From IMG/VR virus record IMGVR_UViG_3300029101_000001: a stretch of 64,000 nucleotides of DNA. One strand, written 5' to 3'. How positions within the stretch are numbered: the first letter of the stretch is position 1; the number at the start of each line of letters is the position of its first letter. This stretch comes from a virus. Positions 1 to 22,898 of the stretch are shown here, one piece after another. The position numbers were made by a program, and so were the translations under genes. Under the pieces are notes generated by a model. The model was given only the letters and a program-made list of their open reading frames with translations, was not told where the DNA came from and did not search any database.

Positions 1-126
1 TATATCCTATCCCTCTGTCTTCTCTATTTTTCGGCTTATGAAATCCTCAACCTCCATTCCAGAATGTCCATCCCATTCTGTTGCTAAATCTGTAATCTGA
101 TTAGGTAAATTTTCAAATTTTGCCAT
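1..126 (-). CDS. hypothetical protein, 5' part (ATG at 124-126, gene runs off the window start); in-frame TAG present
   Basis: Minus-strand translation MAKFENLPNQITDLATEWDGHSGMEVEDFISRKIEKTEGQ(TAG)... read by eye. Confidence 0.35.
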
Positions 127-354
127 TTTTTACAAATCAATTATTTTTCCATGAATCATCTTTTAACCAAGGTCTGTCTTGTAGCCAAGTTCCGCTACCA
201 AAACAGCTTCTAACAGCATCGTATACGGTAAGCCAGACTAACTACGACCCTTTATATATAGCTCCAATGTTCTTTTGTACTCTTTGCTAAACTTGTTCTA
301 CAAGTTCTAGAATATCTTTTTGGACCTGTAATATTAACTTACCATTTCTATATA

Positions 355-708
355 TCATATTTTAGCAAAATCTTCTTTGACTTTAGCTTTTATCTATTTT
401 AATATGTTAAGATATTCTTTATATTCGTTAATAACTTCAGAGTCAGAAATAAGATTTTCTGAATAACTATTATATGAATTGATTAAATCAAATTCTTCAT
501 CAACCGTAAGGAATCTTCTAACTATAGCTTTTACACAATCTTTATAATTAGGCTATCCGTTTATTAATACCTATATAAAACTATAGTAAGTTTTTTCTTT
601 TACGGTATTATCTAAATCAGATACTTTAACACTAATTTCTTTTATATCATAGTTATAGTAATAAGTACCGTTCCCAAGTTTTTGGATTGTCTAAGGATAA
701 ACGTCCAT
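355..708 (-). CDS. hypothetical acidic protein, 117 codons with 4 in-frame TAG codons; overlaps the RT 3' end by 56 nt
   Basis: Codon-by-codon minus-strand read, ATG at 706-708, TGA at 355-357. TAGs at 691, 571, 553 and 394. Frame differs from the RT frame. Confidence 0.4.
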
Positions 709-1927
709 TTGTATTCTATTCGGCTCTAACATAAGGTGTTATTTTAAAATTTATAGGAAATTTGTATCTAAGCAAAGAATAGTGTAATCTCCTATTCTTA
801 CTTTTAAAATAGTAGGGTTTATTGTTATACATGAAATGCACTCGAAAATGATTGTCATAATCAACAACCTCTACAATGTGAATATATTTATTATAAAACT
901 TAGATATGTTAACTTCTTTTCCATTCCAGTTAGAGAATTTCAATCCAGTTAACTCCTCTACCTTTCTCAGCAAGTTCTTAGAGTTGCAAAATTTCATCCA
1001 TCCAAAATAAGACCTCATTCTTCTATTCAATTCATCTTTATCAATCTTATTCTATTTATATAGATTTATAAGCCTAAACATCCTCATTTTTATAGATTTT
1101 CTCAGTAGAACATGAGTATGATAGAATTTATAGCCTACGAAATCAATACCTCTGCTTTCTACAGGGAATATTTGATAATTAGGCTTCAACTCTAGGTTAA
1201 GAACCTGTTTCAAATATAGTTTTATAGATACTAATACATTTCTCAAATAATTCTTGTCATTACCAAGAATCACAATATCGTCAGCATATCGAAAGTAGTA
1301 CTTACATTTTAACTCCTCTTTTACCCAGTGGTCAAAATATGTCAGATATAAATTTGCAAAGAATTGTGATAGATAATTTCCAATAGGAACTCCCTTCGCT
1401 GAATAAATTATTTCTTTCAACAGTTTTAATAGTTTTTTATCCTTTATCTTTCTCTATAACATTTCGTATAAAATGTCGTGAGTTATAGAAGGATAGAATT
1501 TTTTTATATCCATTTTCAAGCAATACTTTGTTTCTTCTGGATGTTTCTATAACACCTTAAACAAATCATACTCTACTTTATGAATACCTCTATTTCGTAT
1601 AGAGGAATATGTTTGGTCTATAAATATACTAGTCCAAATAGGCTCCATAATATTCATTATAGCATGGTGAGTTATTCTATCTGGATAGTATGGAAGTCTA
1701 AAGATTAATCTTTCTTTAGGTTCGTATATTATAAAGGTACTATATTCAGAGGTTTGATAAATCAAATCCCTTAACTTATCGGATAATTCCTTATTTTCTT
1801 TTAATCTATTCTTATCATGCTGCTTGATTCCACATCTAATAGACTTATTTCTTCTAGCTTTATCGTCAGCTAGTTCGATGTTATCTTCAGCGTATACTTT
1901 CTCGTGCAAATATCCTACACGTTTCAA
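653..1927 (-). CDS. DGR reverse transcriptase; gene contains at least 3 in-frame TAG codons read as sense
   Basis: Track ORFs 1547-1927, 1052-1420 and 716-1030 are all in one frame (coordinate mod 3 = 2). Each ends at CTA on plus strand (TAG on minus strand) and the frame continues to TAA at 653-655. Motifs RLIFRLPYYPDRITHHAIMNIMEP (RT fingers), GVPIGNYLSQFFANLYL (DGR-type IGxxxSQ signature), YADD catalytic motif. Cognate TR lies about 140 nt upstream. Confidence 0.8.
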
Positions 1928-2070
1928 TTTTTTATATATTTCATCGGAAGCGTTCGAGAATTAACCTACTAACACCCTTCATTCAACACTACGTTATCTT
2001 TTGCCTAGAGGCAAGGATATTACTTAGCAAACTAAAAAAAAATAATAAAATGTTTCTAAATATATAATAA

Positions 2071-2163
2071 CTCGACATTGGAATTGGCATTGCTGACGTC
2101 ATTGTTAGAATTGAAATAGCTGAGACCTGCATTGCTGCCATTATTCGCGTTGCTGCCTACTAG
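2071..2163 (-). repeat. DGR template repeat (TR), non-coding, adenine-rich at the variable positions
   Basis: Minus-strand sequence ctagtaggcagcaacgcgaataatggcagcaatgcaggtctcagctatttcaattctaacaatgacgtcagcaatgccaattccaatgtcgag. About 72% identical to VR1 and VR2. All mismatches sit at TR adenines, apart from one edge position in VR1. Confidence 0.85.
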
Positions 2164-2215
2164 CAGTACTTTTTTTGCCAATCAACGGTTTTTAGAAGTA
2201 ATATCCTACGATTTA

Positions 2216-4063
2216 TCATCTAAATCGATTTTTATATTGTATATCTTAAGATACTCTATTCAGAGTCCTGAACCCGACACCGGAACCGGCAACGCCGACG
2301 CCACCGTTAGAAAAGAAACAGCCGAGACCCGCATCGCCGCCATAATCCGCGCAGCTGCCCACCCGCAGCGTGCGAAGCGCTGTGCTGCTTGCGTTGCAGT
2401 AATGGTAATCGCAAATATAAGTAGTAGCACTTCCTCCAACAGCGGATGGAATTATTTCAGCGGTTTCACCTAAGTCAAATGCCTTAATATAACCATCAGA
2501 TGCTACTTCGTATCCTGCAACGGTTTTCTCTCCAACTACGTCGGTAAATTCCGATACGTTAGTAGTTGTATAGACAGTGCTAATCTCATTAGCAGCTGCT
2601 CTCACTATAACTACTCCGTCCAGGTTAGTCCAAATGTCTCCAAACGGATTATCGAACCCTCTCCAGCGAGGTACTTTAAATGTATGAGTTGCTACTGTAT
2701 TTGTGCCATCTTGAGCTGTACATTCTGGAATAACTAAATCTTTTACTCCAGTGAAGTTACCAAATTCATTGCAGTAACCACAAGGCGTAAGTGGATATGT
2801 TGCATTATATCCTGACCAACTTGTAGCTGCGTTAGCCCAATCTGTAACTCCAGGTCCCAAACCCCCTTGATGATATCCATCCGCAGTTAACTCTGCATTA
2901 TATGCAGCCTAAGAATTAAAATTAGCATATTCAATGACATAATTCCAGTAGAATATCCATTTGTAATATTCATAGCATAGCAATTCTGAACCAGCATTTG
3001 TTGCATATGTTCTCATAGTAGCTCTAGAAATATTAGTTCTAGGCTTTCCTAAATCACTTCTGAATATATCCTTAGTTTCTAATTCTGTAGTTAGATAATC
3101 ATCGTAGTTAGCTCTATTTCCTCCACCTCTAAATGCAGTAGTAGTATTAACTACTGATACAGCTTTTGGAGTTGCGGAGACTGTGGTATCAACTGTACTT
3201 CTGTATGCATCTATTAATAGTTCAGGAATTTCTACCCATGAATCATCAATTTTGACAGTAGAAGTTCTAACCCATCTTTTGTTTCCATCGCTGCCAGATT
3301 TTCCATAAAATTTAGGAGTATTAACTCTTACTGTTCCATCAGTTCCATCTAAGACAGATGGAGTTTCGCCGTCTTCTTTATAAGACCAGTCATCTGGAAA
3401 CAGATAGTAATTTACTACATCATTGTTTGCTACACAACCTCTATACGCTGACTGAATAGGAAGAGATTTATGCAACAAAGGATTACCTATTCTAGTAAGT
3501 TCCGGAGATGCTACTGTAACATCCCATTCTACTCCATAGGAATATAAATCCATATTACTATTTAGCTCAGTAACCTACTTATCAAGCTTTTGTTGTGCCT
3601 TCTACAATTCTTCCCAAGCCTCATTTAGCGCTGTAAATTGCTCTTCTAGCTTAGAACTTGAATCTGCCCATTCAGCAGTACCATCTGCTGAGAAAACTAG
3701 CATCTATCCAGACGCTCCTCCAGATGGAATATGTTTATTTCCAGAAGTAGTTGGGTGTACATAATTATTAGCATTATTAGCTATAGTACTTAACTTTTCC
3801 TTCTCAGTTTCAGTATAATTGGCTTCAGAAAGTCCCTTTCCTAACTCCTTATCTACTTTGCCTTCAAGCTCACCCTTAGTAGCTAATTCACTAATATCCT
3901 AATGCTCAGTTAAATATCCACTATCATTCTGTAACTAAGAAATTTTAGTTGGAATTGCATTAGCCTTGGCATATGTCGTATCTATAACATTTCCAGCACC
4001 ATCGTAAGTAGCTTTTAAATCATATGTGGTTTCCCCAACCTTTATAGATTTGATTGCTGCCAT
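2216..4063 (-). CDS. DGR target protein 1, tail-fibre / receptor-binding-like, about 615 codons with several in-frame TAG codons; VR near C-terminus
   Basis: ATG at 4061-4063 sits directly after an in-frame TAA at 4073-4075. Continuous reading frame verified through TAGs at 3899, 3935, 3704, 3602, 3575, 2909 and 2246, ending at TGA 2216-2218. Track ORFs 2909-3553 and 2246-2860 are in the same frame. Confidence 0.7.
2273..2367 (-). repeat. DGR variable repeat VR1 (3' end of target gene 1)
   Basis: Hand alignment to TR: 26 differences at TR adenines (mostly A to G or T) and 1 non-A mismatch near the 5' edge. GC-rich island in AT-rich DNA. Confidence 0.85.
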
Positions 4064-7000
4064 ATCATTGTATTATTAAAGTTTCATCAACTACATCGTG
4101 ATCTATTCCCTCTATGGAAGCAGTTAGGTCCTCAACAGCCTTCTACAATTCTGCTTTAGTAGCATAGTTCTTGAGAACTTCCTAGTCTACTCCAGAGCCT
4201 CCTCCTATACTTCCTCCAACAACTTTTACTGGTTTGGCAGAACTCTTAAACTGTCCTTCAATATAAATTGTTCCCATATTGTTTAAAATATTAATTGTTC
4301 ATTTTCTCCATCTACCTCTACACTAGAACCTGGCTATAAAGCGTCTATCTTTTTCTACAATTCGGCTACGGCCTAGCTAATTAGTTCTTCTACCTCAGCT
4401 TTGGTGTAGTATCTCTCTATAAGATATTCGCTTCTAACATATCCAGTATCTTGTAAATCTTTTTCTCCATAGGTGCAATAATAAGTATCTTCTTCAGTCT
4501 TACTATTCTCAACTAGGTCATCATAATCAGCTTGTGGTAAGCATACAAGTTTTGGTACTTCTTCAGTAATAGCAACTTGCTTACCTCCAGCAAATAGCCT
4601 GTTATCTTCTGTGGTAAGTTTAACAGAACTCTCAATAACTTGCTCAGTTCCTGTTTCCTCAGAAGGTTCTCCAGTTGTTCCCTATTGTACTTCTTTTTCT
4701 CCAATTTTCTAAATAGTAATATCAGAAGTTTCTACTGATGTAGATTTCAAAAGCTCAGTGCTAAATTCTTTAGCAGCAGCAGCCTAATCATCCTGATATT
4801 TTTTCTAGGTAACAAATATGAAATCATCATCTCCGGTTTCAGGAGAGTCTCCCCTTAAACTTTCTTTTGTTACGTAATCTTCGGCTATCTAATCTGATAA
4901 ATCAGATAATGACTATTGAGTAGCATAAGTAGACTGAGCATTTTCCTTAGTAAGAAATTTGTCATCAACCTGCTAAATAGTATAATAAGCCTTAATATCT
5001 TCTGTAGTAACGTAGTTTCCAAGTTTTTGCAAACCTTGAACTATTTCATCAATCTACTTCTTGGAGTAATAATTTGTAGCAACCCAGGACTGATATTGAT
5101 TAGTAGTATGATAATTCTAATCCAAATATTCCTTAGTAATATAAACCTTTGCATCATTTGTGACGTCATATACATAGTAATATGTATCAGGCTCTACCGT
5201 CCCTTCCTCTACTAACTTTAGATACTCTTCTTCAGTTAATGTTACTAAGTTCGGAATATCAGATTCAGTAGCAATCTAATCTTCACCTATAAATAATCCT
5301 TCAGACCTAACGTCTACTACTAGCTAGCTCTCTCCCTCTACTACAGGAGATTTTATCTATCCAACAGTGATGCTTTCTAAGGAACCATCTCCATCTACCT
5401 TAAGAGTTTTATCTAACTCGTCTTGGATGGCCTACTAATCTTCCTCATATTCTTTCTTTGTAACGAAGACAAAATCATCTCCTTCCATTCCCTCTCCTCT
5501 AAGGCTTTCTTTAGTAACGAAAATATCGTCTGTTTCTTCCTTAGTATAATACTTAGTCAGGGATAGAGCTAAAGAATCATTAGAGACATAATTAGTAGTT
5601 AATTCTTCCAGTGTAGCATAATCTGATAGGCTGGCAATAGTGTTATCTAAGTCTGTTCTAATCTATACTACAGTAGTATTAAGGGCCTTCTGTTTTAATT
5701 GCTCTTCTATCTTTTTTCCCCATTCTGCGGATAGGTAAAACTAGTCATCGTCTAAGCTATCCTCATATATATAATAATATGTCTCAGCATGAAGATACGT
5801 TTTACTTTCATCTATGGGCCTAAAATCGTCTGTAGTATTCTCAGACCATTCTTTATATTCAGCCTCTGTACAGGTGATTATCTAGATAGATTCATAGGAT
5901 GCTTTCCATCCTTCCTTGTATTTAATCTTAGACTTATCAATCAGCATATAAATATTTCCGTTATCTATGTTAGCAACGGTCATACCTTGATAAGCATACT
6001 TCTCTGGAATAGAATAAAGTTCGTCTAAGTTATTAACGACTGTTCTATTATCGAGAGGCTTCGGAGTTTCTACGGTTAAAGCGACACCTAAGGTAGCATC
6101 ACCTGTATATTTAAATGCCATTATTGTGATAGAATAAAGTTAATTTGATGTGGCAATGCTGAGGAGTAAGTATCTTTCTTAGTCCATACCTTGTAAGTAA
6201 ATCCATTTATCTACTCGGTAGACGTTTCCCAACCACTTAGGTCTACATTTAAATATCCAAGTCCTCCATCTACGGTAAATGAATTTAACTATGTGTTACT
6301 TCCTGGCAATTTTATAATAGCCTTACCACTTAGTGAAAATGTGATAGTTCCAGACGATTGTCCAAAAGGAACTAGCGCCTATTTAATCACACTATCAGTA
6401 TTACCAGAATACCAAGGATATGTGGCTACTACCTAAGCGGTAGCGGAAATAGAACCAGCTTCTACTCTCTTATCTGTAACTTCTCCTTTATTGTTTATCA
6501 AATATTCTCCAGCGGCATAACTCACTGTACCAGAGTGAGTATAAGTACCAATAGAATTATATGTATCAGACTCTACAGGAGAACTGTTATAAGTAATAGT
6601 TTCTTGTCTGTCAGTTTCTTCTCCAGCATCATTCTTTATAAATGTAAGTGTAGGAGTTAATAAAGCAGTTCCTACTTCTACTATTTGAGAAGTAAAACTA
6701 TAATAAAGCTATGGGTATACTAAATCTCTAACTACTGTTGGAAATAGTAAAGTATCAATAATCTCATTAAAGGGCTTGCCCTTAAGTTTCTCTACTGTAG
6801 TCCCTTCAATTACTGTTGAAGTAGTATCATCTGGGAGTTCTGTCTAATAAGTAGCTATAGTTTCTAAGTTAGTTTGTATATTAGTAATACTTTCAGTATT
6901 AGCTTCTACTTTAGTATTTGTCTCTTGTTGTGCTTCCTAAGTTTTCTATACTTCTTTCTTTGTTTCTTCTAGAGCAGGTTCAAGATTCTTAACATAGATA

Positions 7001-10000
7001 CCTGGAAGGATAATAGAAGAGGTTTCCTCTCCAATCTCCTATTCTATTAAATGAATAGCATTATCTTCCTAAGTAGATAAAATCACCTCTAAAGAATTAT
7101 CTTCCTTTAGTTCTATAGTTTTGGAATTTTGGAGACTATTCTTAATCCAATTAAGAATGTTTTTATCAACATCTATATTCTCAATAGCATTATTCAACTC
7201 AACTATAGCTTCATTGATTTTTACTATTTCTTCAGATAGATTATTAATCCCTTTTCTATTAGTATCAATTTCTCGTTGTAAATCCTCCTTCAATACAGAT
7301 ATAGAAGTTCTAATATTGCTTATATCGACTTTCAGTTCTTCTATTGCTTCTGTATTAGATTCATATTCACTAATAAAGTATAGGGCATAGTCTAGGGCAT
7401 CCTTCACAGTATTAATACCTTCTGCAACGTCACTAGTATAGGTCCATTTTTGTTCTATATACTATACTAGGTCTTTTTGCAGTTCTATGGTTCCACTAAT
7501 GTTTCCCCACAATAGACTCTACTCATCAGCAATACCTAAGTTCTTTCTTACTTTAGCTTTTTCTAGTTCTGTCCTATATTCTCCTAAATAGTTATTTCTT
7601 AAGAGAGGTATAGGCTCACATTTTATAGGCTTACCCTTTTTACCACAAGGCACTATATCTGCATTACTTACCGAAGTGTAAATAGACTGTATCATTCTAG
7701 TTTAATAATTGCTATTTAATAAATTCGTGATTATCTAGTCTTACAGGTAGGTTAATAAAACAAATTAGATTAAGAATATCTTGATAATCTGGTTTATATC
7801 CCTTTTTGAGTTTTCTTAGAAAATCCTCATACCTTTTAATAGCCTTTCTCTTAAGAGCATCCACAACCTATACGTTTATGTCCATGGTGGTGATTATCAC
7901 AGAATCCTCCACAGGTACGGAACATCGCTAGTAATCTCTCAGCCTCCATGAATTGTTTAAAGCATATTAAATAATCTATAATGTTAAGAGTCATCCATAT
8001 GAAATCTCGAGCAAATATATCTGCTTCCTAATCTCTAGTTAGACACTTATTTAGTAAAGCATCAAAGAGTTTCTTACAATAATTAATGTAGCACTACTAC
8101 AAGTTTCCTGTAAAGAAAACATCTACCTTACATTTTTTTATAGTAGTTCCTTCTATATTTCGTTCAAGAACTTCTTTAACTGTACACTCTTCTAGCTTAC
8201 CTTCTACTTCTTTATATAATTTTTCTCCATCAGTAACATAGATAGTCTCATAGTATTCCTTGTATTCGTCCGATGAATTTTCATACCATTTCATATTAGG
8301 AATAATGATATGGTCTACTACGTAATAACCATCATCCTTGACCTTAAACATACACGAGTCCAAGTCTTCTGTATGGTCATTAAGTAGGACATCTATCAGA
8401 GTAGCATCGCTTATACTAACTTTGATGATAGTATTCAAGGTAGCACTCTCACTATACTTATAGGAGTCGTAAGAAGTTACTACCTCTACATCTTCATCAA
8501 TATACTAGCCATATTCTTTTGAGAAATCTTCTATCAGTATTTCCCCATTAATTTGGGTATGTATATCAATACTAAATTCCATATTGTAATAATTAAGACT
8601 CAATAGGCCACTAACCATATTGAGCAGGGGTAGAAAAAGGTTTCCATTTACCTGCTTGTCTTATTCGTCTAGACATGAAGACGGAAGTAAATGATAAACT
8701 AATATCTTGAGGATAATCTGTCCAGATATAAGAATATCCATCTGGGGTAGGAGGTAGTTTATCTAGTCCAGAAGAAGGCTGACCATTCCAATAGTAGTTA
8801 TAGTCATATGCCTTTAGAGAAGTAACTTCTGTAGTTTCTTTCCCTTCAGCATCTATATACAGCGGATTTCCGTCCTCATCTGTTTTCTATTTATATTCTA
8901 TAACTGGTGTTATTCCCTCGGTTCTAGTATATATAGTCTATATAATAGTAGAGACATCACTCGCTACTATTTCATAGATAGTAGTTCCCTATGATTCATC
9001 AGCTCCCTAAAAAGTAAATTTAGTTCTTTTCCATATATATGGATTCTCTTCTGTTGGAAGCTCAAAAGTATCAGACCACTACTTACTTGATAGTTTTATT
9101 TCAGATTCATCGGCAGTATTAGCAGGGAGATAATGTATTTTAATAATAATACTATTAACTGCCTCACTTGAACCAGATAAATCTGATACCTACTTAAATA
9201 ATTTTTTTAAGTCGTCTTCTACATTTGATTTAGAACCGGAAGCATTACTTATAATTACTGTCCCATCAGAGATAGGATAAATCTACTGCTAATCTTTGTT
9301 GTATACAATTGTTCCAGTTGCCATATTAATGTATTTGTCTTATTTTGTCATTATATGGATTTCCATCATGAAGCTAAGCCAACTCTATTTCAGTTCTTTT
9401 TTCTTCAATATCCATTTGTCTATCTTTATAAGTAGAATCAGACTGAGCTTTAAGCCAGTTAACTTTATATTCTAACTGCATCTTCTACTATTCTAATCCT
9501 AGTCTCTATTCATCTAAGCTTTCAATCTTTTGCTGAGCTTTCTATAATTCTTGCTATAACTACTGAGCCTATTGAGAAGTTTCTTCTAATTTTTCTTGTA
9601 GTTGCTGAAGCTGATTATTTTCCTCTTTGCGAACTTGAACAGCTTTCTTAACCTTATATTTAAGGTCTGTCAGACTCTTAGATGTAAGAGCCTCAAAAAT
9701 AATATCTGGGTCCATCTGTTGACTTTTTACGAACTCTGGAATGATTGCTTTTATAGTCTATAGATCTTCCATCACTTCTGAACTAGCAGTAATATGAATA
9801 TCGTAGTCAGTAACAGTAAAATACTCAGGAAGTGCGGTGAATATCTGTTGATATTTATCCCCAAGTATAATAGTTCCAGTTAATCCTTTCTTATAAGTAA
9901 CTTTAGCCTAATTAAGACTATCTAGTAGTATCTCGCAGGTTATTAAATCCATCTGCTAAAAATAGTGCTTAGTTACTATATACGAGTTAGCTACTCCCTA

Positions 10001-11449
10001 CTTAATATTAGTAACTGCATCTCTAGTTTCTATACCGTTAAGTCGTTCCCTAAATACTCCAGTTATTGATGATGTAGTTTGTTCTACTGATTGAATAGCT
10101 AATTCAATAGCCTATACAGCCTATGCTTTTAAGGTATCATCAAATCCGTTATATATCTAGTTTGGAGCTTGCTGTCCATCATTCCTACCTTCTTGGCTTG
10201 AGTCTATCCACATGATACCACCTTTTTTATAGGCTAACCATTTTTGTACTCGTTCTGGCCATTTAACTCCTAAGTTGGTAGGCAACAGAGACATATCCAT
10301 AATAACTCCGGCAGTACCACTATTAGCTATTAGATTATCTCTATAATAGTTTAATAAGTCGTATCTATCCTACAGATGTGCACATTTTAATATAAGAGAA
10401 TAAGGCTACTAAGAGCGATTTAAGAAATATACTCCATTTACCGATAAAGAACAGAAGTTGGGATTATCTTTAGATCTCATAACAGTCTTGTCTAATCCTC
10501 TAAGAATATATATCTCTTCTCCTATTCTAATAGTATTGTATCTCTACATCACAAAATCATCATCTGTTTCAATCCATTCAACATCATAGACTGGGATTAA
10601 CTAGAACCTATGAGCACTATATTCATTGTCTGGATAGCCGGGAATGGTTTCATGATTCTAATCTTCATTTACTACTGTACAAGTATCTCCATATACTCTT
10701 CTATAAACAGCAGCTGAATCATCAGCTCGCCATTCATCTTTTAGTCTTCTTAAATCTTCTCTAGATATTTCTTTGCCATATTTAGCTAAAATCTAACTCT
10801 TACTCATCCACTTTCTTACTACAACTCTATATGAGTTCCTTACATATGGAGATTCTGGATTTCTATCAACAAATGTATTAAGTGGGTTTAATACCTCTAT
10901 TTCAATATTAGTTCCAGAAGCCGATGATTTCACTCTAAAGAATGTATAACCAGTAATTAATAAGTCTGTTAGTAACTAACGTAACTTAGTAATTAAATCG
11001 GTTTCTCTGGATTGCATAATATAATGTAATATATTCTAAGCTGCAATTTCATATTGAGAAATAAAGGATTGGTCAATATCCTATATAATTTTATCTAACT
11101 AAGTCTTTACAGCTTTATCAGTAATATCCTTGCCATCAATAAACTTAAGAATTGAATTACTTAAATGGTCTTTCAAAAACTTTACTATTCCCTTGGTTAT
11201 TTCTAGCTATTTTTCTCTTGTTATATTACTGATAGTATCTGAATCTTTGCAAGAAATTTTCGGAAGTATAGGAGTTCCTAAATATTCTCCAACTAGGGCA
11301 TCTACGTGTTTCTTTAATAAAGGCGTAAACTCTACCGAAGTGGGGCTACCTATTCCGAAGTTTTCTTCCAGATAACGGAACTATTCAGGATCTCTTTTAC
11401 CATTATAATAATTATAAGCTTTCTGTAACTCATACTTATCATATACAAG

Positions 11450-13900
11450 TTCCGCAATAGCCTCGTTTGTCTTGTCTATCAATTCCTTCTCTTTCATAAC
11501 ATAAATTATGTTGTTCTGGAGGAAGTTTAGTAGCGTTATAATACTTAACTCTTTGTAACTTCCTACTTCTTAATTCTTCCTTAATAAATGGCAGAAATTC
11601 TTCGTCTGGTAAATCTGCTATTATTACTAATGGCATTTCTGACCTATCAAAGTTAAAAGAGACTTTATACCCAACTGGGTCTAAACTCTCAATATCTAGT
11701 CCGCCTATATACTCCATTTTGTACAAGTCCCTCATATATTCTAGGATCACTTGTTTCAACTCTGTATGGGTCATCATATTCGTTTCTTTGCATATTAAGT
11801 TCAGGAGTTTTCTTAGTTGGAATAACTCCAAATCTTTTAATTCCTCTCTCGTCGTAATAGTAACCAAAATCTTGGAACTATTCAACTTCTTTCTCCACAA
11901 GTACGGGCTGTCTTCCTGATAGCTCTTGGTCTGCTAACTCAGTCATACCTACAGCGGCTACAATATCATACTTACCCTTATTTTCATCATTATATGCAGT
12001 GAACTATTCTAGCATTTCTTCGAACCATATAGTATGGCAATAGTCTTCTATAAAGGCGGCTGTTAAATCAGTATGCTATTCGATTATAGTTTTTGTAGCA
12101 GGAGTTCCATACTATTTAGTAGTTCCATTTCTAACGTCAGTTAGAGTAGCTCTTGGGCGCTTCATAAAATAGTTAAGGCATCCTTTTTCTCTAGCCCAAG
12201 TAACCATACCCATACGAGTAGCTTCTATATTTATTTTACAATTATAATAGCGAGCTAAACACATAGCTATTTTATAGGCTTCTCTGATGTCTCCAGGTCT
12301 ATCCTTGTACATAGCAACATACTGAGGGTCATTCATACCAAATGTACGTTTCTTAATCGTTATGCAGAAATCAGACGGGTCTCTGGTTTCCTTAGAAGTC
12401 TAATTCGCTCCAATATCAATACCGTCTATACCTGCTACGTATAAGTCTCGCATCTCTTTATAAACTGGAACTTCAAAATCCTAGCCATTATCTTCTGCCT
12501 CCTATCTAAGCTTTTCCATTTGTTCTTTATATAAGTCAGACCATATTGGATGCTCTAGAATTTTTACTTTACCATTGCTGTTAGGAATCCATTTAAAACC
12601 ATCAATGTTATCCTAAGTATGTTTATTATTTTTGTAAAAATAATCAATATAACCACATTCGGGTCTTGGACCAATTTGTTTAAGTCTTATATTAGCTATC
12701 TATTCGGCAACTAAAATTTTATTAAACTTATTAACACCTTCTAGATTAAATGCTTCTTCTGCATTCCAACAACGTTCAGCACATTTCTTTAGGTAGTCTT
12801 CTGGTACAGCTAATAGATTATCTCGCTCCTCCTATAAGAATTTCTTATATTCCACAGTATTACATACTCCTCTGTGGTCCATAAATTCTGGATTCAAAGA
12901 TTGTATAAAGTATGGAATAAAGAATCCACTCTCTATAGTAGTCCCATCCTAAGTCCAATTATGTCTAAATGGAAGAATCTTATATGCTCTTGGATTATAG
13001 TAAATCTTTTTTAAGCCCTCTAGAGGAGCACCCATATCACCGCCAGTACCTCCAAACAACATTGTTCCACGAGGCATACCTTGAACTTCACAAAGTTCTT
13101 GACCTTGTACTACAGCGGTATCAAGTCCAGGCCAGGAACCAGCTTCATCATATATTAATAAATCTACACGGTCTCCACGAATGTTAGATGGTTTAGCTCC
13201 GTTAATTGCTACAACCTCAGATTTAAATCCTACGTCTTCAAACTAACCATTTATTTTGATTTGTTTACCTGATTTCTTTCTCAAATCCTGGTCAATAAGT
13301 CGTAATTTAAAAAATCCTCCTCCAGTACAGGTATTTAAGAATGTAAGAGCATTATCAAACTTACTAAAGGTACCCTTAAGGAAGGTATCATTAAAGCAAG
13401 TAATCATAACCCTACTTCTTCTAATAACAGAGTACATACGAGCAGAAAGAGAGGCGTTTATTTCAGAGAATCCAATAGAACGAGCTTTCATTAAAGCTGC
13501 GTGCTTGTGTAGCACTCTAGCCATCTATAGATAATGAAAGAACATATAATGTGATGCAAAGAATATTGGGAAGTCATTATCAGTACCCTCACCAGAGGCT
13601 TTCTACTAGTCAATAGTAGGTAACTAATAGAAATTTAAGAAGAAGTAATTATCTCCAGTAATGGTGTACCCATTAACTGTCATTCCATACTTACATCTTC
13701 TATATTGCTCTTTCCAAAATTCGTTGTACCGCTTACTATCTCTAAGGTAGGGACAGTATTGACCAGTTCGTTTATATACTTCCCTAGTCTCGGTAAACCA
13801 ATCTGGATTAAAGTCCAATCCATGAGTTTCGTCAATAGGTCTGTATCCAGTTATTTCATAAGATAAGGTAGGGTCAAATACTTCTATTTTATCTCCTATT
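11450..13900 (-). CDS. putative terminase large subunit (approximate ends); in-frame TAG codons
   Basis: Track ORFs 13624-13818, 13243-13524 and 12112-12336 share one frame, and translation continues through TAGs. Contains hhhhDE-type Walker-B-like LLIYDEAGSW and later YVAGIDGIDIGAN (nuclease-like). Read by eye, the Walker A motif was not located. Confidence 0.35.
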
Positions 13901-15441
13901 TTAACATCCCAATAGTCAGAATTTCTGACCCTTTCCTCTCTTATTTTCTATACTAGTTCTCTAGCTTCTTTAGCATCCTCTTTCTATTCTTTTTCTCTTA
14001 CCTAATCTACAATATTCTATATTTCTTCAGGTAATATCTTTTTTCTTGGCATAATTAAAAGTCTCCTGGGTCAAAACCATCCACAGCTCCAGCTCTAACA
14101 GTAGATTGTTCAGTAAGTTCTTTCTTAACCTAGTCTTCTAGTGTTATGAGTTCTTCATGAACTTTGTGAAGGGTAGCCATTTCCTTCATTACTTTTTCAG
14201 CCTGGAATACTGGCTTGCCGTTATTATCACGCTCATTTAAATCTACAATAGTTTCGAAATAATCAATAAACTAGTCTGCAGCTCTTTTAGCTGCTTCTAG
14301 TAATTTTATTGACTTGTTTGAATCTTGTAACGCTCTGTATTTCCTACAAGCTTCTCTAAATATAGGGTCATTAAATTCTGACTCTGTCAATCCAGAATCA
14401 CTAATAGCTTCGTCATGTCGTTCATGTTCCGAATACTAACTGTACGGACTTTTCCAGTCTATAGCTAAATAAATGTAAGATAGTTCTCTAGTAGCTCTAT
14501 CCTTTTCTGCAGATTTATCCCTCTAGATTAAAGCCTTAAATTCCTTAACTAGCAATATCTCTGGTTCATTTATTTCTAGCTATTTAGTTAAAGTGTTATA
14601 GTTAAATACATTCATAATCATTAATCATTATCATACACATTAGATAATCTTATTATTTCTTTTTCATTTTGGAACCGCACTTATTGACTTTCATTTTTGA
14701 GCCACAAGCGTCTTTCTTAGCATATTGTTTTCTGTCAGGAACCCATTTTCCTCCCTGGAAATTACCCTTATGTCCTTTATTGGCCATAGTTTCCTAATCA
14801 TTGTATTTATTGATTGATATAGAATCTCTTGAGGCTTCGTCTCTAGCAGATTTCATATCTTTCTTATACTAAGCTCTTCCAGCCTTAAATTTATCAACTT
14901 CATTAGCTTTCTTAGTAACTTTAGTTCCTTTTTGTGCTTTCTGGCAAGCTTTACAGATTCTACCGCCTTGCTTAAAATATACAAGCTCTTCTCCTTCTGG
15001 ACATACTCCTTTTAGCTTCTTATAATACTCAAGCTTAGCTCCAAGCCTAGCCATTACTCCTCCTTGCATTTTCTGCATAAATTCCTGATACTTAGCTTTA
15101 ATGCCGTCTTCACCTAATTGTTCAGCATAAGCTTGTAAATCCTATTCAGATTGTACTTGTATTCCCTACGCAGCGGCATCTTGTATTAGATATGCCATAA
15201 ATGCTTTTTGTAATTCTTCCTAGTTAGCCATTACTCTTCTACTTTAATTAAATCCTTAGTATTAAACACTGCTTCCTACATAAGTCCGGAATCAGTAAAC
15301 CATCTACATCTTAATCCTCGTAATCCTTGGTTATCTTTAAATAAAGCTGCTTCTCTTCTTAGAACAAGCATAACTGGAGAATGCATTACTTTACACTACC
15401 GTAAAGTAACACAATCCCCAGGCTTAAAATAAACTTTTTCA

Positions 15442-16044
15442 TCAATTGTTTCCATACTTCAATTCGTTTCTTCTTTCAGTTAGCTTTTCGTTAACTACAG
15501 CCATAATTCTGTTCTCATTAACTACAACAAATCCAAACTTGTAGAACGGAACCATGCACTCGCTAGCTATTGTATAGAATACTATATCTCCAGGTTTTAG
15601 GAACTCACACTTGTGCCCAACCTCAATAACAGTACCCACTTTAATAAATTGTTGTTCTTCTTCTATTTCTCCTGTTTCATTAGATTTATATGTTGGAGCA
15701 AACCCACCTAAGTCTGTAATTAATCCACTCTTAGTAGTTTTAATTTTTTGAAACGGATTTTGTTCGAAAGGTTTAATTAATGCATACCCATACATAGGCA
15801 TAATTTCTACACCATTCATATCCTCAGATAATGATTTGGCGTAAGATTCTAAAGCTGCATTATGTTTAGAGAATTTATCTTCTAATTCATCTACTGCTGT
15901 ATTGAATCTTTCCTGTTTTTCTCTTAATAAAGTTTTATCTGCAGCTTCTCCATTTACTATAAGGTGCTGTCCTGTACCTTCCATACCAGTTATAGCTAGT
16001 GCTAGTTTCTCATTACTGTTTAATTCTGTTCTTAAAGTTTCCAT
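15442..16044 (-). CDS. protein with C-terminal GroES-like co-chaperonin domain
   Basis: C-terminal IKPFEQ...SGLITD...IKVGTVIEVGHKCEFLKPGDIVFY...NENRIMAV resembles GroES/gp31 mobile-loop and beta-barrel motifs. Confidence 0.35.
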   Translation of the reverse strand: METLRTELNSNEKLALAITGMEGTGQHLIVNGEAADKTLLREKQERFNTAVDELEDKFSKHNAALESYAKSLSEDMNGVEIMPMYGYALIKPFEQNPFQKIKTTKSGLITDLGGFAPTYKSNETGEIEEEQQFIKVGTVIEVGHKCEFLKPGDIVFYTIASECMVPFYKFGFVVVNENRIMAVVNEKLTERRNELKYGNN

Positions 16045-16052
16045 AATTCATT

Positions 16053-16391
16053 TTACCATTTACATAAATCACAATGTTCATCTTCTATTCTAGTTTTGTT
16101 CTCTAGTATACAACCACATTCCTCACATACTTCCCCAAATGAAGTCTGTAATTTATGAGGACAAGTATTACAAATATTTAATCTTGTGGTTGCTAAATCT
16201 TGATTAATTCCAAATATATGGAAATATATACTCTTCAATATTACTAAAGGTTTAGTAAATATTGCTTTAATCCATTTCTTTGGCATCTTTTCAGTAGGTT
16301 CTTGAGTCATAAGTATATAAGCCTTAGTAGGGTTAGCCATTACTGGAGTCCCATATAGTAATAAATTATTTACCATTTCTTCGCAGGACAA
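16053..16391 (-). CDS. Cys-rich zinc-ribbon protein
   Basis: Track ORF with multiple CxxC pairs. Confidence 0.4.
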   Translation of the reverse strand: MSCEEMVNNLLLYGTPVMANPTKAYILMTQEPTEKMPKKWIKAIFTKPLVILKSIYFHIFGINQDLATTRLNICNTCPHKLQTSFGEVCEECGCILENKTRIEDEHCDLCKW

Positions 16392-16585
16392 TGCTTCTTC
16401 TCATTAGGTATCTTTAATTCCAGTAGACATCCACATCCTTTTATATACCCTTCTTTTGGGCCAATACTTATGTCATTGTTTTCTGGATTTAAATACAACT
16501 GTCCATTACATATTGCATCTTCTTGATTACATATTGGACAGCGTCTACATATTTTCCATCTTTCTTCTATTTCCTCTAGTGTCAT
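16370..16585 (-). CDS. small zinc-ribbon protein
   Basis: CRRCPICNQ...CGC...HCP motifs. Confidence 0.4.
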   Translation of the reverse strand: MTLEEIEERWKICRRCPICNQEDAICNGQLYLNPENNDISIGPKEGYIKGCGCLLELKIPNEKKHCPAKKW

Positions 16586-16587
16586 AA

Positions 16588-17502
16588 TTAATATTCAATA
16601 CGTTGACGTTTCTTTTTATTTTCTGCCAATATAGATTCTTTCTTGTAAAAAGAAAGCATTCTTATTACTTCATCTTTTAAGTATGGTAAGTGATATACTG
16701 TCATGTTATCACTGTGGTCGAAGTGTACTAAAACTAAATCTTCAATTTCAAATTCTGGGTTTTTCTTCTGAATCATCCAGGCGTAAGTACTTAGCTGAAG
16801 GGCATAATGCCAATAATTAACATCATCTAAATTATTTAGAGGATACTTCATCTTAACTGATGTCTTAGTTTTAGAATTAAAGAAACTCTTTGTTTCTATT
16901 TTTTTATTAGTCTTCCAGTCACCAATAATTATCTTATTACCTCTTTTAACTAATAAGTCAATTTGTCCAGCTATTCTTAGTTTTCCGTCCTCAGATACTC
17001 TAGAGATTAGATACTCAGGATATACCCCATTCTCCAAATCTAGATTGTTATAGTCTTTTATACACTCAAACTTGCCACCTATTTGATATTTACTTAGGTC
17101 TATATCCTTCTTCTTTTTGTAAAAAGAGTTTTCCAAATCTGCATGGATTCTAGTTCCTCTCTCGCAAGAGTTTCTGTTCTCCATATCCCATGCATCTAAG
17201 ATAGCTTGTTGTTCTTTATTAAACTCGTCTTCTGTAATGTTATGAAGTTCAAGTAGAACTTTGTCAAATTTCTTAGTATTCAGCAGAGATTTTTTCTCGA
17301 TAGCCCAATCTTCTTTAGGTAGAAGTTTCTCTAGTGCTTTATAAGCTGACCAGAACTCTTTATCAAAGGGTTGGGTGAAAGAATGAATTAAAGTCGTTAC
17401 AGATATAAATTTCTGTTCTGGCTTTGTAACATCATAATAAATATGAGCTTCCTCTTCGAAAGCTATGTTCCCATTTTGTTTTGTAATTTTACTTTTGTCC
17501 AT
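16588..17502 (-). CDS. PD-(D/E)xK superfamily nuclease (YqaJ / lambda-exonuclease-like)
   Basis: 304 aa ORF without TAG. Motifs ERGTRIHADLE, GQIDLLVKRG, IIGDWKT, QLSTYAWM. Confidence 0.55.
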   Translation of the reverse strand: MDKSKITKQNGNIAFEEEAHIYYDVTKPEQKFISVTTLIHSFTQPFDKEFWSAYKALEKLLPKEDWAIEKKSLLNTKKFDKVLLELHNITEDEFNKEQQAILDAWDMENRNSCERGTRIHADLENSFYKKKKDIDLSKYQIGGKFECIKDYNNLDLENGVYPEYLISRVSEDGKLRIAGQIDLLVKRGNKIIIGDWKTNKKIETKSFFNSKTKTSVKMKYPLNNLDDVNYWHYALQLSTYAWMIQKKNPEFEIEDLVLVHFDHSDNMTVYHLPYLKDEVIRMLSFYKKESILAENKKKRQRIEY

Positions 17503-17616
17503 TAGTCATAATTCATTTAATCATTTATCACATTTATCTATATTTATTTGATACTTTTCAAGTATATTAATATTCTTTGTAAGATACAAATCAATAAATA
17601 ATACATTATATTAAAA

Positions 17617-17958
17617 ATGTCTAATATGACAAAAATGGTAACATTTGGATGTCCAATTTTTAAAAACGGGTCAGGCATTCATATTAAAGAGAAAAACAAA
17701 GGTAAATTTACTGCCTCTGCTAAGGCTGCAGGATAGTCTGTACAGGAACATGCTAAATCTGTACTAAACAATCCTAATGCTACTCCTCTTCAGAAGAAGC
17801 GTGCTAACTTTGCTAGAAACGCGGCTAAATGGAAACACGAAGATGGAGCTAAGATACATAAACCAAGTGGACATAGATCTATTCTAGATAATGGATGGAT
17901 TCCTACTACTAGATTAAAGAAAGGAAATTATGGATTAATTAAAACAAGAAAGCAATGA
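17617..17958 (+). CDS. hypothetical basic protein with in-frame TAG (plus-strand island inside the late block)
   Basis: ATG 17617 to TGA 17956. One TAG read as sense (AAGQSVQEHAK). Confidence 0.4.
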
Positions 17959-18032
17959 ACGCTGTAGTTAAATTAATTAAAGAATTTATACTTAAGATAT
18001 ATCTTTATTTACTATTTATATTTAATAAGTAA

Positions 18033-18227
18033 TATGGACTATAATAGAGCAACTCTTTATGCGGCTACTGGTCGTACTTTATTACTCCCTGGCTGGAAAG
18101 GGTATTTTTATTGGGACTATACTAAGAATGAATTAAATTTTAGAAATGGAGACTATCATTTAGATAACAAATAGCTCAAGGAGAAAGGAGTTATGGAACG
18201 TAATGATTGGTATTATATAATATGATA
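18033..18227 (+). CDS. hypothetical small protein with in-frame TAG
   Basis: MDYNRATLYAATGRT...DNKQ(TAG)LKEKGVMERNDWYYII by eye. Confidence 0.3.
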
Positions 18228-18614
18228 ATTAAAAATAATATTATACCGTTTGGAGGTTATAAAGTAATTAATCTGTTTGGATTAATATTTACTAAGTCGG
18301 ATTTGACTGATGAGGATAAGAATCACGAGAATATCCATTCAGTATAGATTTTAGAATGTGCAATAGCGTTTGCAATACTTATATCTATATTATTTGGATT
18401 AGAATGGGTATGGTTAGCTATTCCATCTTTCTATATCTGGTATGGATTAGAGTATTTAATTATACGACTATTAAGACTTAAAGATTCTCAAAATGATTGC
18501 TACAGAGATGTAAGCTTTGAAGAAGAAGCTTATATGAATGAAGACAATTTACAGTATCTAGAAGGATAGAGAAAGATGTTTTCATGGATAAAATATCTAA
18601 AAGTTAATGCATAA
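18222..18614 (+). CDS. hypothetical membrane protein with 2 in-frame TAG
   Basis: MIIKNNIIPFGGYK...hydrophobic AIAFAILISILFGLEWVWLAIPSFYIWYGL... ends with TAA. Confidence 0.35.
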
Positions 18615-18619
18615 CAAAA

Positions 18620-18660
18620 TAGGCGAACTTAGACAATTAAGTCTAGGCTCGCCTATTTTT
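18620..18660. terminator. bidirectional hairpin terminator between convergent genes
   Basis: Stem taggcga/tcgccta (7 bp), loop about 22 nt. T5 downstream on plus strand and T-run on the minus-strand side. Confidence 0.5.
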
Positions 18661-18871
18661 ATTTACTATTATACGTACAAGTGATTCTGTTTGGCTCTTC
18701 CCACCAAGGTTTATCTGAAAGTGGAGTTCTGATGCTATTGGGCCAATTTATAATTGGAGTAGTTTCCTCTACTATAGCCTCCATTATTTTAAATAATGTA
18801 TCCAAGTCTAGCTCTGGAAGCAGCTCATGAATATTAGTTATTGTTTTCTTATAATTTATCATACCCTTCAA
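18659..18871 (-). CDS. hypothetical protein
   Basis: Track ORF, ends at genuine TAA. Confidence 0.45.
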   Translation of the reverse strand: MKGMINYKKTITNIHELLPELDLDTLFKIMEAIVEETTPIINWPNSIRTPLSDKPWWEEPNRITCTYNSK

Positions 18872-19217
18872 AAGTGTCGTTAATAATTGCTTTCTCTATT
18901 GTAGTATCTTTATATAAACCATGTTGTAGTATATTTCTTACTTGATGGTCTATTTGATTCCATATATCTAATAATATAGAAGAATCATCTGAAAGACTAT
19001 ATTGTGGATAGCTAGCCCTTAAACTGCTAAGTACTTTGCCATTAATGTAAATGTCAAATACGAAATTTTTTATATCATCTGTAGTTTCTCCAGAAATTCC
19101 TGCAGCTCTTTGTAAAAGTTTAAGAGCCTTTTCATATACTTCTCTTTCTTCACGTTCTCTTCTTGAAGAATTAAACATCATCATATTTGCGGCTACTGAC
19201 ATATTAGTACGATACAC
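18849..19217 (-). CDS. hypothetical protein (N-terminus may extend through TAG)
   Basis: Track ORF, genuine TAA stop. Confidence 0.45.
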   Translation of the reverse strand: MYRTNMSVAANMMMFNSSRREREEREVYEKALKLLQRAAGISGETTDDIKNFVFDIYINGKVLSSLRASYPQYSLSDDSSILLDIWNQIDHQVRNILQHGLYKDTTIEKAIINDTFEGYDKL

Positions 19218-19366
19218 TTAGCTTATTTAAGTTGTCTAGATAATCTAAGAACCATTGTTCGTTTTGTTTTCCTTCTTCTACAATAGTATTAATTAAAGAT
19301 TCTGTAGCTAATAGTGTTATTTCTGCTAGTTCCTCTAATTCCGATTTAGTAAGTTCGTTATATTTT

Positions 19367-19681
19367 TCAATCAAGTTTAACATAATCCATCCAGTCTTTT
19401 ATATATGATTTACATTCTTCCAAATCTGGATAGATACTTGTTATAGAGCATCCAGTTTTCGGATTTTTAAAGTGGTGCATCTTAGCCTCTTCTTTTTTCT
19501 CCTCTTCTGTATTTCTATTTAATGTTCTATTCCAATAGTTGTACTTTTCATCTAACATTTCCATATCACATTCCTCTAATATTTTCATATTAGGGTTATT
19601 CATTATCTTGTCGTACTTTCTCTTTAAATTAGAGACTTTGACAACATCATTTCCATTTAATACAACTGCACACTGTTTCAT
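19367..19681 (-). CDS. hypothetical protein
   Basis: Track ORF, TAA stop. Confidence 0.45.
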   Translation of the reverse strand: MKQCAVVLNGNDVVKVSNLKRKYDKIMNNPNMKILEECDMEMLDEKYNYWNRTLNRNTEEEKKEEAKMHHFKNPKTGCSITSIYPDLEECKSYIKDWMDYVKLD

Positions 19682-19905
19682 TTCAATACCTTATAAGTAC
19701 ATATCTTGCCTATCTGTTTTCCTTGAATTGTTATTTGCGGAAGAAAATAGCAGGCTTGATTCTCAAATTCTTGAGGTACAAAGATATAATCAAACTTACT
19801 TCCAACTACCTTCTCACAAACTTTATTCCAATCGTCTCCCTCTTCTATAATAAGAGTTTTAGCTCCTGTTGGAGTTACTATATAATTCTCATTTAATTTT
19901 ATCAT
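19678..19905 (-). CDS. hypothetical small protein (start trimmed to MIKLNENY so it does not overlap the tRNA)
   Basis: Track ORF 19678-19980 overlaps the suppressor tRNA. An internal ATG at 19903-19905 gives a 75-aa product. Confidence 0.35.
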   Translation of the reverse strand: MIKLNENYIVTPTGAKTLIIEEGDDWNKVCEKVVGSKFDYIFVPQEFENQACYFLPQITIQGKQIGKICTYKVLK

Positions 19906-19922
19906 AACTATTAATTTTGGCG

Positions 19923-19994
19923 TTGCCCTACTAGGATTCGAACCCAGACTAAATGATTTAGAGTCATCTGTGCTGACCATTACACCATAGGGCA
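19923..19994 (-). tRNA. amber suppressor tRNA, anticodon CUA, probably charged with Gln
   Basis: Minus-strand cloverleaf: ugcccua ug gugu aauggucagcac a gauga cuCUAaa ucauu uagu cuggg uucgaau ccuag uagggca a. Acceptor, D-arm, variable loop and T-arm nearly identical to the phage tRNA-Gln(UUG) at 34204. Confidence 0.85.
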
Positions 19995-20534
19995 GTAACT
20001 TATTTCTCTTTTAGAGATTTATTTTCTGCTGCCAATTTCTCTAGTTCTTTTCTTAATTGTTCATTTTCGTGAAATAAAGCCTGCATAGTAGCGTTGATAC
20101 TAGCTAATAGTATTCTCATTTGAGCAACCTATTCATACATAAGCTTTCAGTTGTTCAATTCTCTTTTTAGCTATATCTGACAATGCCATTTTGAATTTAG
20201 CAATACCAGCTCTTACTGTTTCTAACTTGCCGCTTTCTAAGCATTCTTGTATTTTATGAACTTCAAGCTCTCCTAGATATTCGCATACATCTATAAATAA
20301 ATCATCATCTAGAGATTCTAAATATTTCTGGAATTGGTCTACCTCTTCATTAGCTAGACAGCTTTCTTCCTTCTATCTTTCATAAGATATTAATAAGAAC
20401 AAAGAATCGTCGGTAGATTCGGACTTAATAGTTAGCCCATTACCAGACATATAATATTCTTGATTCGTATTAATTGCCTCAACTAGCTATTTAAACTAGT
20501 CCTAATTTAACAATGTTTCTAAGTCTGTAATCAT

Positions 20535-21545: not shown

Positions 21546-22278
21546 CTCTAAGGTACTATGAGTTTTAAATAAAGTGCCCACATGAACCCCATCATCGGAA
21601 CGTTGGTTAACGGGGAAAACAACATCACAACAAATCAAATCAAAGTTTTTGTTTAGTTTTAGGATTATATCTGGCAGCTTGGAAAGACAAGCAAAATCTT
21701 TATACCTATCTGCTAATAGGTTTAGTGTTCAACGCGAAAATTCGGTAAAGGAAGGAGAGAAATTGTCCACTAAAAAGACCCTCAATTTCCGGACTTTTTC
21801 CGATTTTCAAAAAATCCGCCAGAGTAGGAGTTATATAGCTCACACTCTCTATGGACATTATTTAGTATTTAGCCTATAAAAGGCAACAAAAAGCGAGGCT
21901 ACGCAGAAGAGCCTAACACCAAAAATAACTGCTACAAATTCTATGTGCATATTCGCAAACTTGAGCACTATAGGATTTAGGTTGAGCTATAAGGATTGGT
22001 CACTTATAGCAATATTATGAGTACTGCTGATATGTCAGTGACCGTACATATCACATATAAAATATGTTATACAATTATGTTAGAAGTTGCCAGGTCTAAG
22101 AAGCCTGATTAAAATCTCTAGATAGTAAGAGAGAACCTCATAAGGGTTCATTTTCCATCTCGAACCTATTCGCAAGTTTATAGACTAGCTATCTATAAAT
22201 TTAGTGAACGTTGATAACGTCCTCAGCATGGAAAACTGAGAAATAATCTCCTATCTTATTCTAGATATAGATAGGATT

Positions 22279-22345
22279 TCCCTACTGGTATAATGGATTG
22301 CGTCTCCCGCTGGAGAAGATTCTGGTTCAAGTCCAGAGTAGGGAA
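22279..22345 (+). ncRNA. tRNA-like element with a truncated anticodon arm (4-nt loop)
   Basis: Acceptor ucccuac/guaggga, D-arm gguauaaugg, T-arm ucugg uucaagu ccaga. Anticodon arm ucucc-cgcu-ggaga has no 7-nt loop. Confidence 0.35.
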
Positions 22346-22759: not shown

Positions 22760-22898
22760 CTCCTATTCTAGCTGAGAATTAAAACTAGCTGGCTTTTATT
22801 ACTCTTTGTAAAAGCTCAAAAATTAAAAAGAGAAATCTAGAACGGTAAGCCCGGCTCTCTTCATCCTTTAACTGATTTAGAAGTAAAACAGAAATTAG

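Follow-up and report, generated by a model that had tools for sequence, protein, structure and literature searches.

Amber codons in the reverse transcriptase gene of a phage diversity-generating retroelement probably reflect the recoding of a whole genome arm

When the gene for a mutagenic enzyme is interrupted by stop codons, is this a switch that controls the enzyme, or does the gene simply share the genetic code of its neighbourhood? The question is raised by a reverse transcriptase (RT) gene of a diversity-generating retroelement (DGR), located on the minus strand of the IMG/VR virus record IMGVR_UViG_3300029101_000001. A stretch of 64,000 nucleotides of this record, hereafter called the window, was analysed. 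The RT gene carries in-frame TAG (amber) codons, and a first, sequence-only reading of the window had proposed that they gate mutagenic homing. Code 15, in which TAG stands for glutamine (Gln, Q), was reportedly described in phages by Ivanova in 2014. We consider it highly likely that the recoding of the RT gene is a passenger of a code 15 used throughout its genome arm; the DGR would depend on amber suppression, in a generic manner that is not specific to the RT. This answer builds on what sequence and computation show, namely the open reading frame (ORF) of the gene, its identity as an RT, the use of TAG for Gln, the recoding of the entire arm, and an ongoing diversification of the variable repeats (VR).

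The RT gene and its TAG codons are located as given below.

653-1927, minus strand: DGR reverse transcriptase gene; start TTG at 1925-1927, 424 codons in code 15, stop TAA at 653-655
1547-1549, minus strand: TAG 1, codon 127, between RT motifs 2 and 3; Q, K or R in relatives
1454-1456, minus strand: TAG 2, codon 158, between motifs 3 and 4; R, K or Q in relatives
1052-1054, minus strand: TAG 3, codon 292, thumb region
716-718, minus strand: TAG 4, codon 404; a TAA follows 20 codons further on

Minus-strand translation of 653-1927 meets neither an internal TAA nor an internal TGA; the remaining five frames contain 16-42 of these two codons each. The openness of the RT frame is far beyond chance: when the ORF was shuffled 20,000 times, in-frame TAA or TGA turned up every time (mean 29.4). 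This translation confirms the in-frame TAGs noted in the sequence-only reading as well as the closure of the frame at TAA 653-655, which is reached after 424 sense codons. The three TAGs named there (1547-1549, 1052-1054 and 716-718) are indeed in frame, but the count of three was wrong: the codon at 1454-1456 had been overlooked, and the total is four.

The standard code splits the gene into pieces of 126, 30, 133, 111 and 20 codons. The TAGs at codons 127 and 158 precede motif 4 (GxxxSQ, amino acids (aa) 183-188) and the catalytic YADD (aa 214-217), and codon 127 precedes motif 3 (MDIKKFYPS) too. Judged by this arrangement, only in code 15 does the RT gene remain intact, and in the standard code its product could only be expected to be an inactive fragment of 126 aa. 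Past TAG 4, the end of the RT overlaps the ATG (706-708) of the following recoded gene. Standard-code relatives have K at this position and then 7-14 extra residues.

The start codon TTG (1925-1927), followed by AAACG, is kept in recoded and in standard-code relatives and is conserved throughout the group. An ATG located 15 nt upstream (1942-1944) is used as the start of a database protein (P0001, 'MKYIKKLKR...'). This ATG was rejected as the start of the RT, since neither the window nor any of 14 close relatives has it in the reading frame of the gene. All four TAGs of the RT are followed by A. A special 3' context of TAG was considered and rejected as well: after the 117 TAGs of the recoded block the next base is the same as after CAA and CAG (p = 0.69). 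Another database protein, P0024 from a 3-kb contig, shows 99% identity to the RT across the C-terminal 68%, and its N-terminus is unrelated, with Pfam domains of the PRD/CAT type. Either the assembly or the gene call is probably chimeric.

Is the product of this frame a DGR reverse transcriptase? Translated in code 15, it matches Pfam RVT_1 contiguously over aa 76-267 (profile positions 12-204/205, E = 1e-19) and the family PHROG 1423 'Reverse transcriptase' over aa 1-339 (E = 2e-113), so that the contiguous RT which the sequence-only reading expected of a code-15 translation was obtained. The closest solved structure is 8ub7_A, an RT of 328 aa (E = 4.7e-45 across aa 43-329); retron and group II intron RT structures score only about 1e-15. 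We regard 8ub7_A, deposited under the bare name 'Reverse transcriptase', as bRT, the DGR enzyme of a Bordetella phage. Its IGSLTSQ and YMDD align with PIGNYLSQ and YADD of the window RT, and PIGNYLSQ (motif 4, aa 181-188) is invariant in 31 homologues. More than 7,900 database proteins match the RT, the best ones end-to-end and with no gaps at the TAG positions.

A gene for the accessory protein Avd was not found: there is no ORF among the target gene, the template repeat (TR) and the RT gene, and Pfam and PHROG searches with the neighbouring small ORF gave no Avd. The 117-aa gene downstream of the RT has no Pfam match and only one PHROG match, to PHROG 11557 of unknown function. Avd is common in DGRs, but not universal. 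By profile, structure and motifs, the gene at 653-1927 is thus to be regarded as a genuine DGR reverse transcriptase.

The next question is what the TAG codons encode and which molecule reads them. Two tRNA genes are of interest here.

19922-19994, minus strand: amber suppressor tRNA with anticodon CUA, the only minus-strand tRNA; labelled 'Pyl' by ARAGORN
34204-34276, plus strand: tRNA-Gln(UUG), the closest paralogue of the suppressor in the phage

The suppressor scores 66 bits against the Rfam tRNA model. It is identical to tRNA-Gln(UUG) at 57 of 73 positions, with one difference each in the D and T arms and with compensatory differences in the acceptor stem. In related RTs, TAG occurs at the invariant Q188 of GxxxSQ (8 sequences) and at the invariant Q252 (5 sequences). 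We also compared the portal, the DGR target and a 243-aa protein of the window with their homologues in relatives with standard-code late genes: the residue facing a TAG of the window is Gln in 84 of 176 cases (48%), which is an approximately ten-fold enrichment over the background of 4.7%. Since TAG stands at invariant Gln positions, Gln is enriched opposite TAG, and the suppressor is a paralogue of tRNA-Gln(UUG), TAG is to be read as Gln in the window. The label 'tRNA-Pyl' was rejected on the grounds of this paralogy and of the TAGs at Gln sites, as it is based on the anticodon only. The suppressor appears to be derived from tRNA-Gln, its charging with Gln is predicted, and we infer that this tRNA(CUA) of the phage is the decoder of TAG. 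For other crAss-like phages, TAG = Gln (code 15) has been confirmed by proteomics (Peters 2022, PMC9523058).

This suppressor tRNA recurs on 29 IMG/VR contigs, among them 12 with the recoded RT. It lies on the same strand as the recoded block, about 4.7 kb upstream of it, and this order is conserved in relatives: the suppressor tRNA is followed by about 4.5 kb of TAG-free genes and then by a TAG-rich TerL and portal. Expression of the suppressor may simply coincide with transcription of its arm. Scans for sigma-70 promoters and intrinsic terminators near the RT and the suppressor gave counts close to the shuffled expectation, with Bacteroidota promoters lying outside the scan model. No release-factor gene was seen among the largest plus-strand ORFs, to which this non-exhaustive scan was limited.

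If the RT can only be completed by reading through four TAGs, does the DGR work at all? The elements of the cassette are the following.

1928-2068, minus strand: non-coding spacer between TR and RT, with a conserved block and a hairpin at 1999-2016
2069-2166, minus strand: template repeat (TR), 98 nt
2271-2368, minus strand: variable repeat VR1, at the 3' end of the target gene
2246-4063, minus strand: DGR target, a tail protein of 605 aa (PHROG 5302, E = 1.5e-81) with 6 in-frame TAGs
29042-29139, plus strand: remote variable repeat VR2, within a TAG-free ORF of 186 aa (28697-29257, plus strand)

TR and VR1 differ at 25 positions. 24 of these mismatches are at TR adenines, of which 24 out of 30 are altered, and as the repeats lie beside an RT gene, the locus is therefore a DGR. 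VR1 ends 25 nt from the stop codon of the target; tail-fibre targets of Zeta crAss-like phages have C-type lectin domains (PMC12386605). The spacer block GTGTTAGTAGG...CTCGAACGCTTCC is kept in relatives with an RT identity down to about 70%. Together with the hairpin 1999-2016 it may be a part of the DGR RNA that is used for priming.

Of the 24 differences between TR and VR2, 20 fall on TR adenines. Between genomes with an RT identity of 97-99% the TR hardly varies, but their VR1 departs from that of the window at 13-16 TR-adenine sites and at only 0-3 others. VR2 varies chiefly at TR-adenine sites, too, in five relatives. These population data indicate that the DGR is active in the lineage of the window. 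Where a DGR with a four-TAG RT diversifies two targets, read-through must occur in nature, and the diversification of the VRs argues that the RT is read through its TAG codons in vivo. The ORF that carries VR2 belongs to PHROG 11581, whose function is unknown, and is located in the tRNA-rich standard-code arm; a single TR serves this repeat. The VR2 target may be undescribed so far, as multiple TR-VR pairs are given only for the phages Lera and ct1yV3 (PMC12386605).

Are the TAGs a property of the RT, or of the region in which it lies? The RT gene is part of a recoded block on the minus strand.

355-15231, minus strand: TAG-recoded block; eleven genes, each carrying 4-28 in-frame TAGs
11689-14052, minus strand: TerL (PHROG 6681, E = 7e-63), recoded
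9326-11497, minus strand: portal (Pfam P22_portal), recoded
355-708, minus strand: PHROG 11557 gene, 117 aa, recoded, next after the RT
15442-19900, minus strand: TAG-free stretch between the suppressor and the recoded block, with a GroES-like gene, an exonuclease gene and small ORFs

The block contains TerL, the portal, tail genes, the DGR target, the RT and the PHROG 11557 gene. When TAG is counted as sense, ORFs of at least 100 aa in the window add up to 74.4 kb, compared to 43.9 kb in code 11. At related loci the coverage rises from 0.08-0.20 in code 11 to 0.90-0.95 in this way. No TAG is present in the minus-strand genes at 15442-19681, nor in the seven large plus-strand genes examined, which include a NAMPT-family enzyme, AAA ATPases and an OmpA-like protein and are interspersed with 26 plus-strand tRNA genes. 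Within the block, TAG accounts for 26-80% of the Gln codons per gene, and the RT, with 4 TAGs among 10 Gln codons, lies within this range. Its low TAG density per 100 codons results from its being poor in Gln. As the RT of the relatives is followed by an ORF of 2,170 aa with about 40 TAGs, the RT gene is located in the middle of the recoded arm and not at its edge.

In 80 related IMG/VR loci the TAG count of the RT depends on the surroundings in the same way. Strongly recoded flanks (ORF coverage 0.08-0.46 in code 11, 0.67-0.95 with TAG as sense) go with 3-9 TAGs in the RT, and standard-code flanks (coverage about 0.9) with none; a partly recoded locus (L036) has a single TAG in its RT. From sub-lineage to sub-lineage both the number of TAGs in the RT (0 to 9) and their positions drift. 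The share of TAG among the Gln codons was compared between RT and flanking genes by Fisher tests at 13 loci, with low power in either direction since an RT has only about ten Gln codons. In the window the share is 0.40 in the RT and 0.48 in the flanking genes (p = 0.75). At 12 of the 13 loci there is no significant difference, the exception being L044 (p = 0.036, uncorrected). In standard-code relatives a TAG-free RT lies together with the portal and the tail-fibre target, all on one strand, in the late structural module as well. The RT is thus coupled to the late programme by its placement, whether or not the arm is recoded.

Implementing these observations, we propose the following course of events. 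The phage is probably a Zeta-type crAss-like gut phage of about 185 kb, whose arm for packaging, virion and tail is written in code 15. The DGR cassette is situated inside this arm, with the tail-protein target and VR1 first, then the TR and then the RT. Being one of three codons for Gln, TAG would have entered the RT gene no faster and no slower than the neighbouring genes; the four TAGs lie at variable positions, which hold Q, K or R in relatives. In a standard-code host, RF1 would stop the translation of the RT at codon 127, and full-length RT would appear when the suppressor tRNA(CUA) (19922-19994) outcompetes RF1. Accumulation of the suppressor would consequently precede full-length RT just as it would precede all other proteins of the arm. 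From the TR RNA the RT would then produce cDNA that is erroneous at adenines and that would replace VR1 and the remote VR2.

Several points weigh against this reading. One of the relatives, L049 (IMGVR_UViG_3300035497_000038, RT at 6121-7335), has recoded flanks (coverage 0.45 in code 11, 0.92 with TAG as sense) and an RT without any TAG (0 of 9 Gln codons; share of the flanks 0.30, p = 0.06), so that recoding is not obligatory for an RT. Upstream of the suppressor, an acidic and plausible ORF of 133 aa (20133-20534, minus strand) has 4 TAGs and no PHROG match, so that recoded genes are not strictly confined to the region downstream of the suppressor. The timing of the suppressor and the residue that is actually inserted at TAG are both inferred. 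Finally, the affiliation of the phage is likely but not proven: its assignment to the Zeta crAss-like group is indirect and is based on size, on traits in common with a published table and on distant matches of TerL and RT to crAss-like phages. Near-identical relatives lie on contigs of 185-193 kb, and the closest named matches are crAss-like phages for TerL (25-28% identity) as well as for the RT (52-58%). A megablast search with positions 1-20000 of the window gave no match among the INPHARED phage records.

The interruptions could also be taken at face value, as nonsense mutations in a decayed pseudogene, with the DGR as a fossil. The five code-11 fragments and the missing Avd gene would fit such a history. 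Yet all interruptions are TAG, with no TAA or TGA, a result that none of the 20,000 shuffles reproduced; the essential genes TerL and portal are interrupted likewise; hundreds of homologues can be aligned to the code-15 protein with no gap; and VR1 and VR2 diversify at TR-adenine sites among near-identical genomes. We therefore regard decay as virtually out of the question. A different meaning of TAG, e.g., pyrrolysine, Lys or Tyr, or a read-through that bypasses the phage tRNA through a host suppressor or leaky termination, is very unlikely, although somewhat less so than decay. It could draw on the 'Pyl' call of ARAGORN and on four TAG positions of the RT at which K or R is commoner than Q in relatives, and reassignment and detectable suppressor tRNAs do not always go together (PMC7886860). 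However, the 'Pyl' label describes an anticodon on a tRNA closely paralogous to tRNA-Gln(UUG), invariant Gln residues of relatives are replaced by TAG, and Gln is some ten-fold enriched opposite TAG. The suppressor moreover co-occurs with the recoded lineage, and in other crAss-like phages the proteomic result was Gln (PMC9523058).

Another reading is an adaptive gate specific to the RT, in which selection keeps the TAGs of the RT and homing is confined to late infection, after the code switch. In every recoded lineage with at least one TAG in its RT, the first TAG (aa 13-157) precedes YADD, so that no active RT is to be expected there without suppression. The weak TTG start suggests a tight limit on RT dosage, and some lineages show a higher TAG share in the RT than in the flanks (0.82 versus 0.52-0.58, p = 0.065-0.13), including the nominally significant L044. 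On the other side, the RT of the window lineage has a TAG share no higher than that of its neighbours, the TAG positions are not conserved among sub-lineages, L049 lacks TAG in its RT amid recoded flanks, and the RT of standard-code relatives is TAG-free in the same late module. These comparisons of TAG share, at some ten Gln codons in each RT, have little power in either direction. On balance we hold the gate to be improbable. The same low expectation applies to its stronger form, in which the TAGs and the weak TTG start together are a selected safety device that keeps the error-prone RT off until the code switch. If it were true, retro-mutagenesis would hit only the replicated genome pool just before packaging and never cells stalled before the switch.

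The sequence-only reading is accordingly to be divided. Its statement that full-length RT cannot be made without amber suppression is sound, given TAGs ahead of the catalytic motifs, a tRNA(CUA) in the phage and an active DGR. That the recoding of the RT gates mutagenic homing finds no support: all eleven genes of the block are recoded, the RT share does not stand out, and the positions drift. The standard-code relatives with their TAG-free RT in the same late module further undercut a special gate. We thus return to the RT as a passenger of the code-15 arm.

This is in line with what has been reported for Zeta crAss-like phages. The group was defined by genomes of 145-192 kb with many tRNAs and a reassignment of TAG or TGA mostly in late genes (Yutin 2021, PMC7886860), and code switching over short phylogenetic distances was observed in it (PMC7886860). 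Seven Zeta crAss-like DGR RT genes with amber suppression were reported in 2025 (PMC12386605). Their RTs have the GxxxSQ motif and long C-termini, and Avd is present in only two phages (PMC12386605). In the table of that study, amber-recoded DGR-positive genomes measure 176-189 kb and have 23-27 tRNAs and a CTA suppressor (PMC12386605), a profile with which the window and its relatives on contigs of 185-193 kb agree. Amber codons in DGR RT genes of the Zeta group are thus already published, and the feature described here is real but ordinary. Compared by published description, the window resembles ctoVY1, cthgQ11, 3717_85572 and ctHMy13 (PMC12386605) in its amber recoding with a CTA suppressor tRNA, in the order of tail-fibre target with VR, TR and RT, and in an RT with GxxxSQ, a long C-terminal extension and no Avd. 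It differs from the Zeta RTs of that study in the length of the RT (424 aa, compared to 414 aa there) and from most Zeta DGRs in the remote VR2 that is fed by a single TR.

With the code-15 gut phages at large (PMC7886860, the Borges preprint 10.1101/2021.08.26.457843, and PMC9523058) the window shares a recoding that is found mainly in the structural and packaging arm, a suppressor tRNA in standard-code territory, and standard-code relatives that are phylogenetically close. According to the proposal of the Borges preprint, stop codons within late and lysis genes would delay their products until the suppressor tRNAs have been produced (10.1101/2021.08.26.457843). DGR RTs are not discussed in these papers, and the terms 'reverse transcriptase' and 'diversity-generating' occur nowhere in the Borges preprint (10.1101/2021.08.26.457843). 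Unlike in those phages, the suppressor of the window is on the same strand as the recoded arm, at its head, with one TAG-containing ORF upstream. The DGR of Bordetella phage BPP-1 is similar in the I/LGxxxSQ and YxDD motifs of its RT, in adenine-specific mutagenesis from TR to VR, and in a VR at the C-terminal end of a tail protein, which in BPP-1 is the tail-fibre receptor-binding protein. In contrast to its complex of bRT, Avd and TR RNA, no Avd was detected in the window, and the RT is extended at its C-terminus by about 100 aa. The window RT also differs in being written in code 15 with a TTG start and in having a second, remote target, and the phage is apparently virulent and crAss-like, whereas BPP-1 is temperate.

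The standard-code arm of the window exhibits further features. 28 tRNAs are predicted in the window, and approximately 26 plus-strand tRNA genes are arrayed at 26195-51117, among them three tRNA-Met and three tRNA-Tyr calls. One of the tRNA-Tyr calls (39406-39488) has the unusual anticodon ATA. A RAGATH-14 RNA (RF03145) is matched at full length at 22082-22252 on the plus strand (174 bits, gathering score 149), and directly downstream of it, at 22279-22346 on the plus strand, ARAGORN calls a 'tRNA-???' with a two-base anticodon. Several plus-strand standard-code genes seem to stop at TAG and have a spare TAA or TGA 2-11 codons further on, e.g., 42518-43111, 44900-45607, 46043-46498, 22887-23420 and 28078-28362. 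Such back-up stops look as if they protected early genes from the suppressor that the phage itself encodes, a buffering that has been described in other Zeta phages (PMC12386605).

That late functions depend on the suppressor is already the usual, if hypothetical, view of recoded phages; in this respect the locus opens no new question. Its significance concerns annotation in the first place: gene prediction in code 11 misses the DGRs of code-15 phages or calls them broken, and the locus in the window exemplifies that such an RT can be intact and, to judge from the diversification of its VRs, active. Moreover, an enzyme that takes four read-through events to complete and that diversifies two targets would be a natural demonstration of amber suppression in vivo in an uncultured phage lineage.

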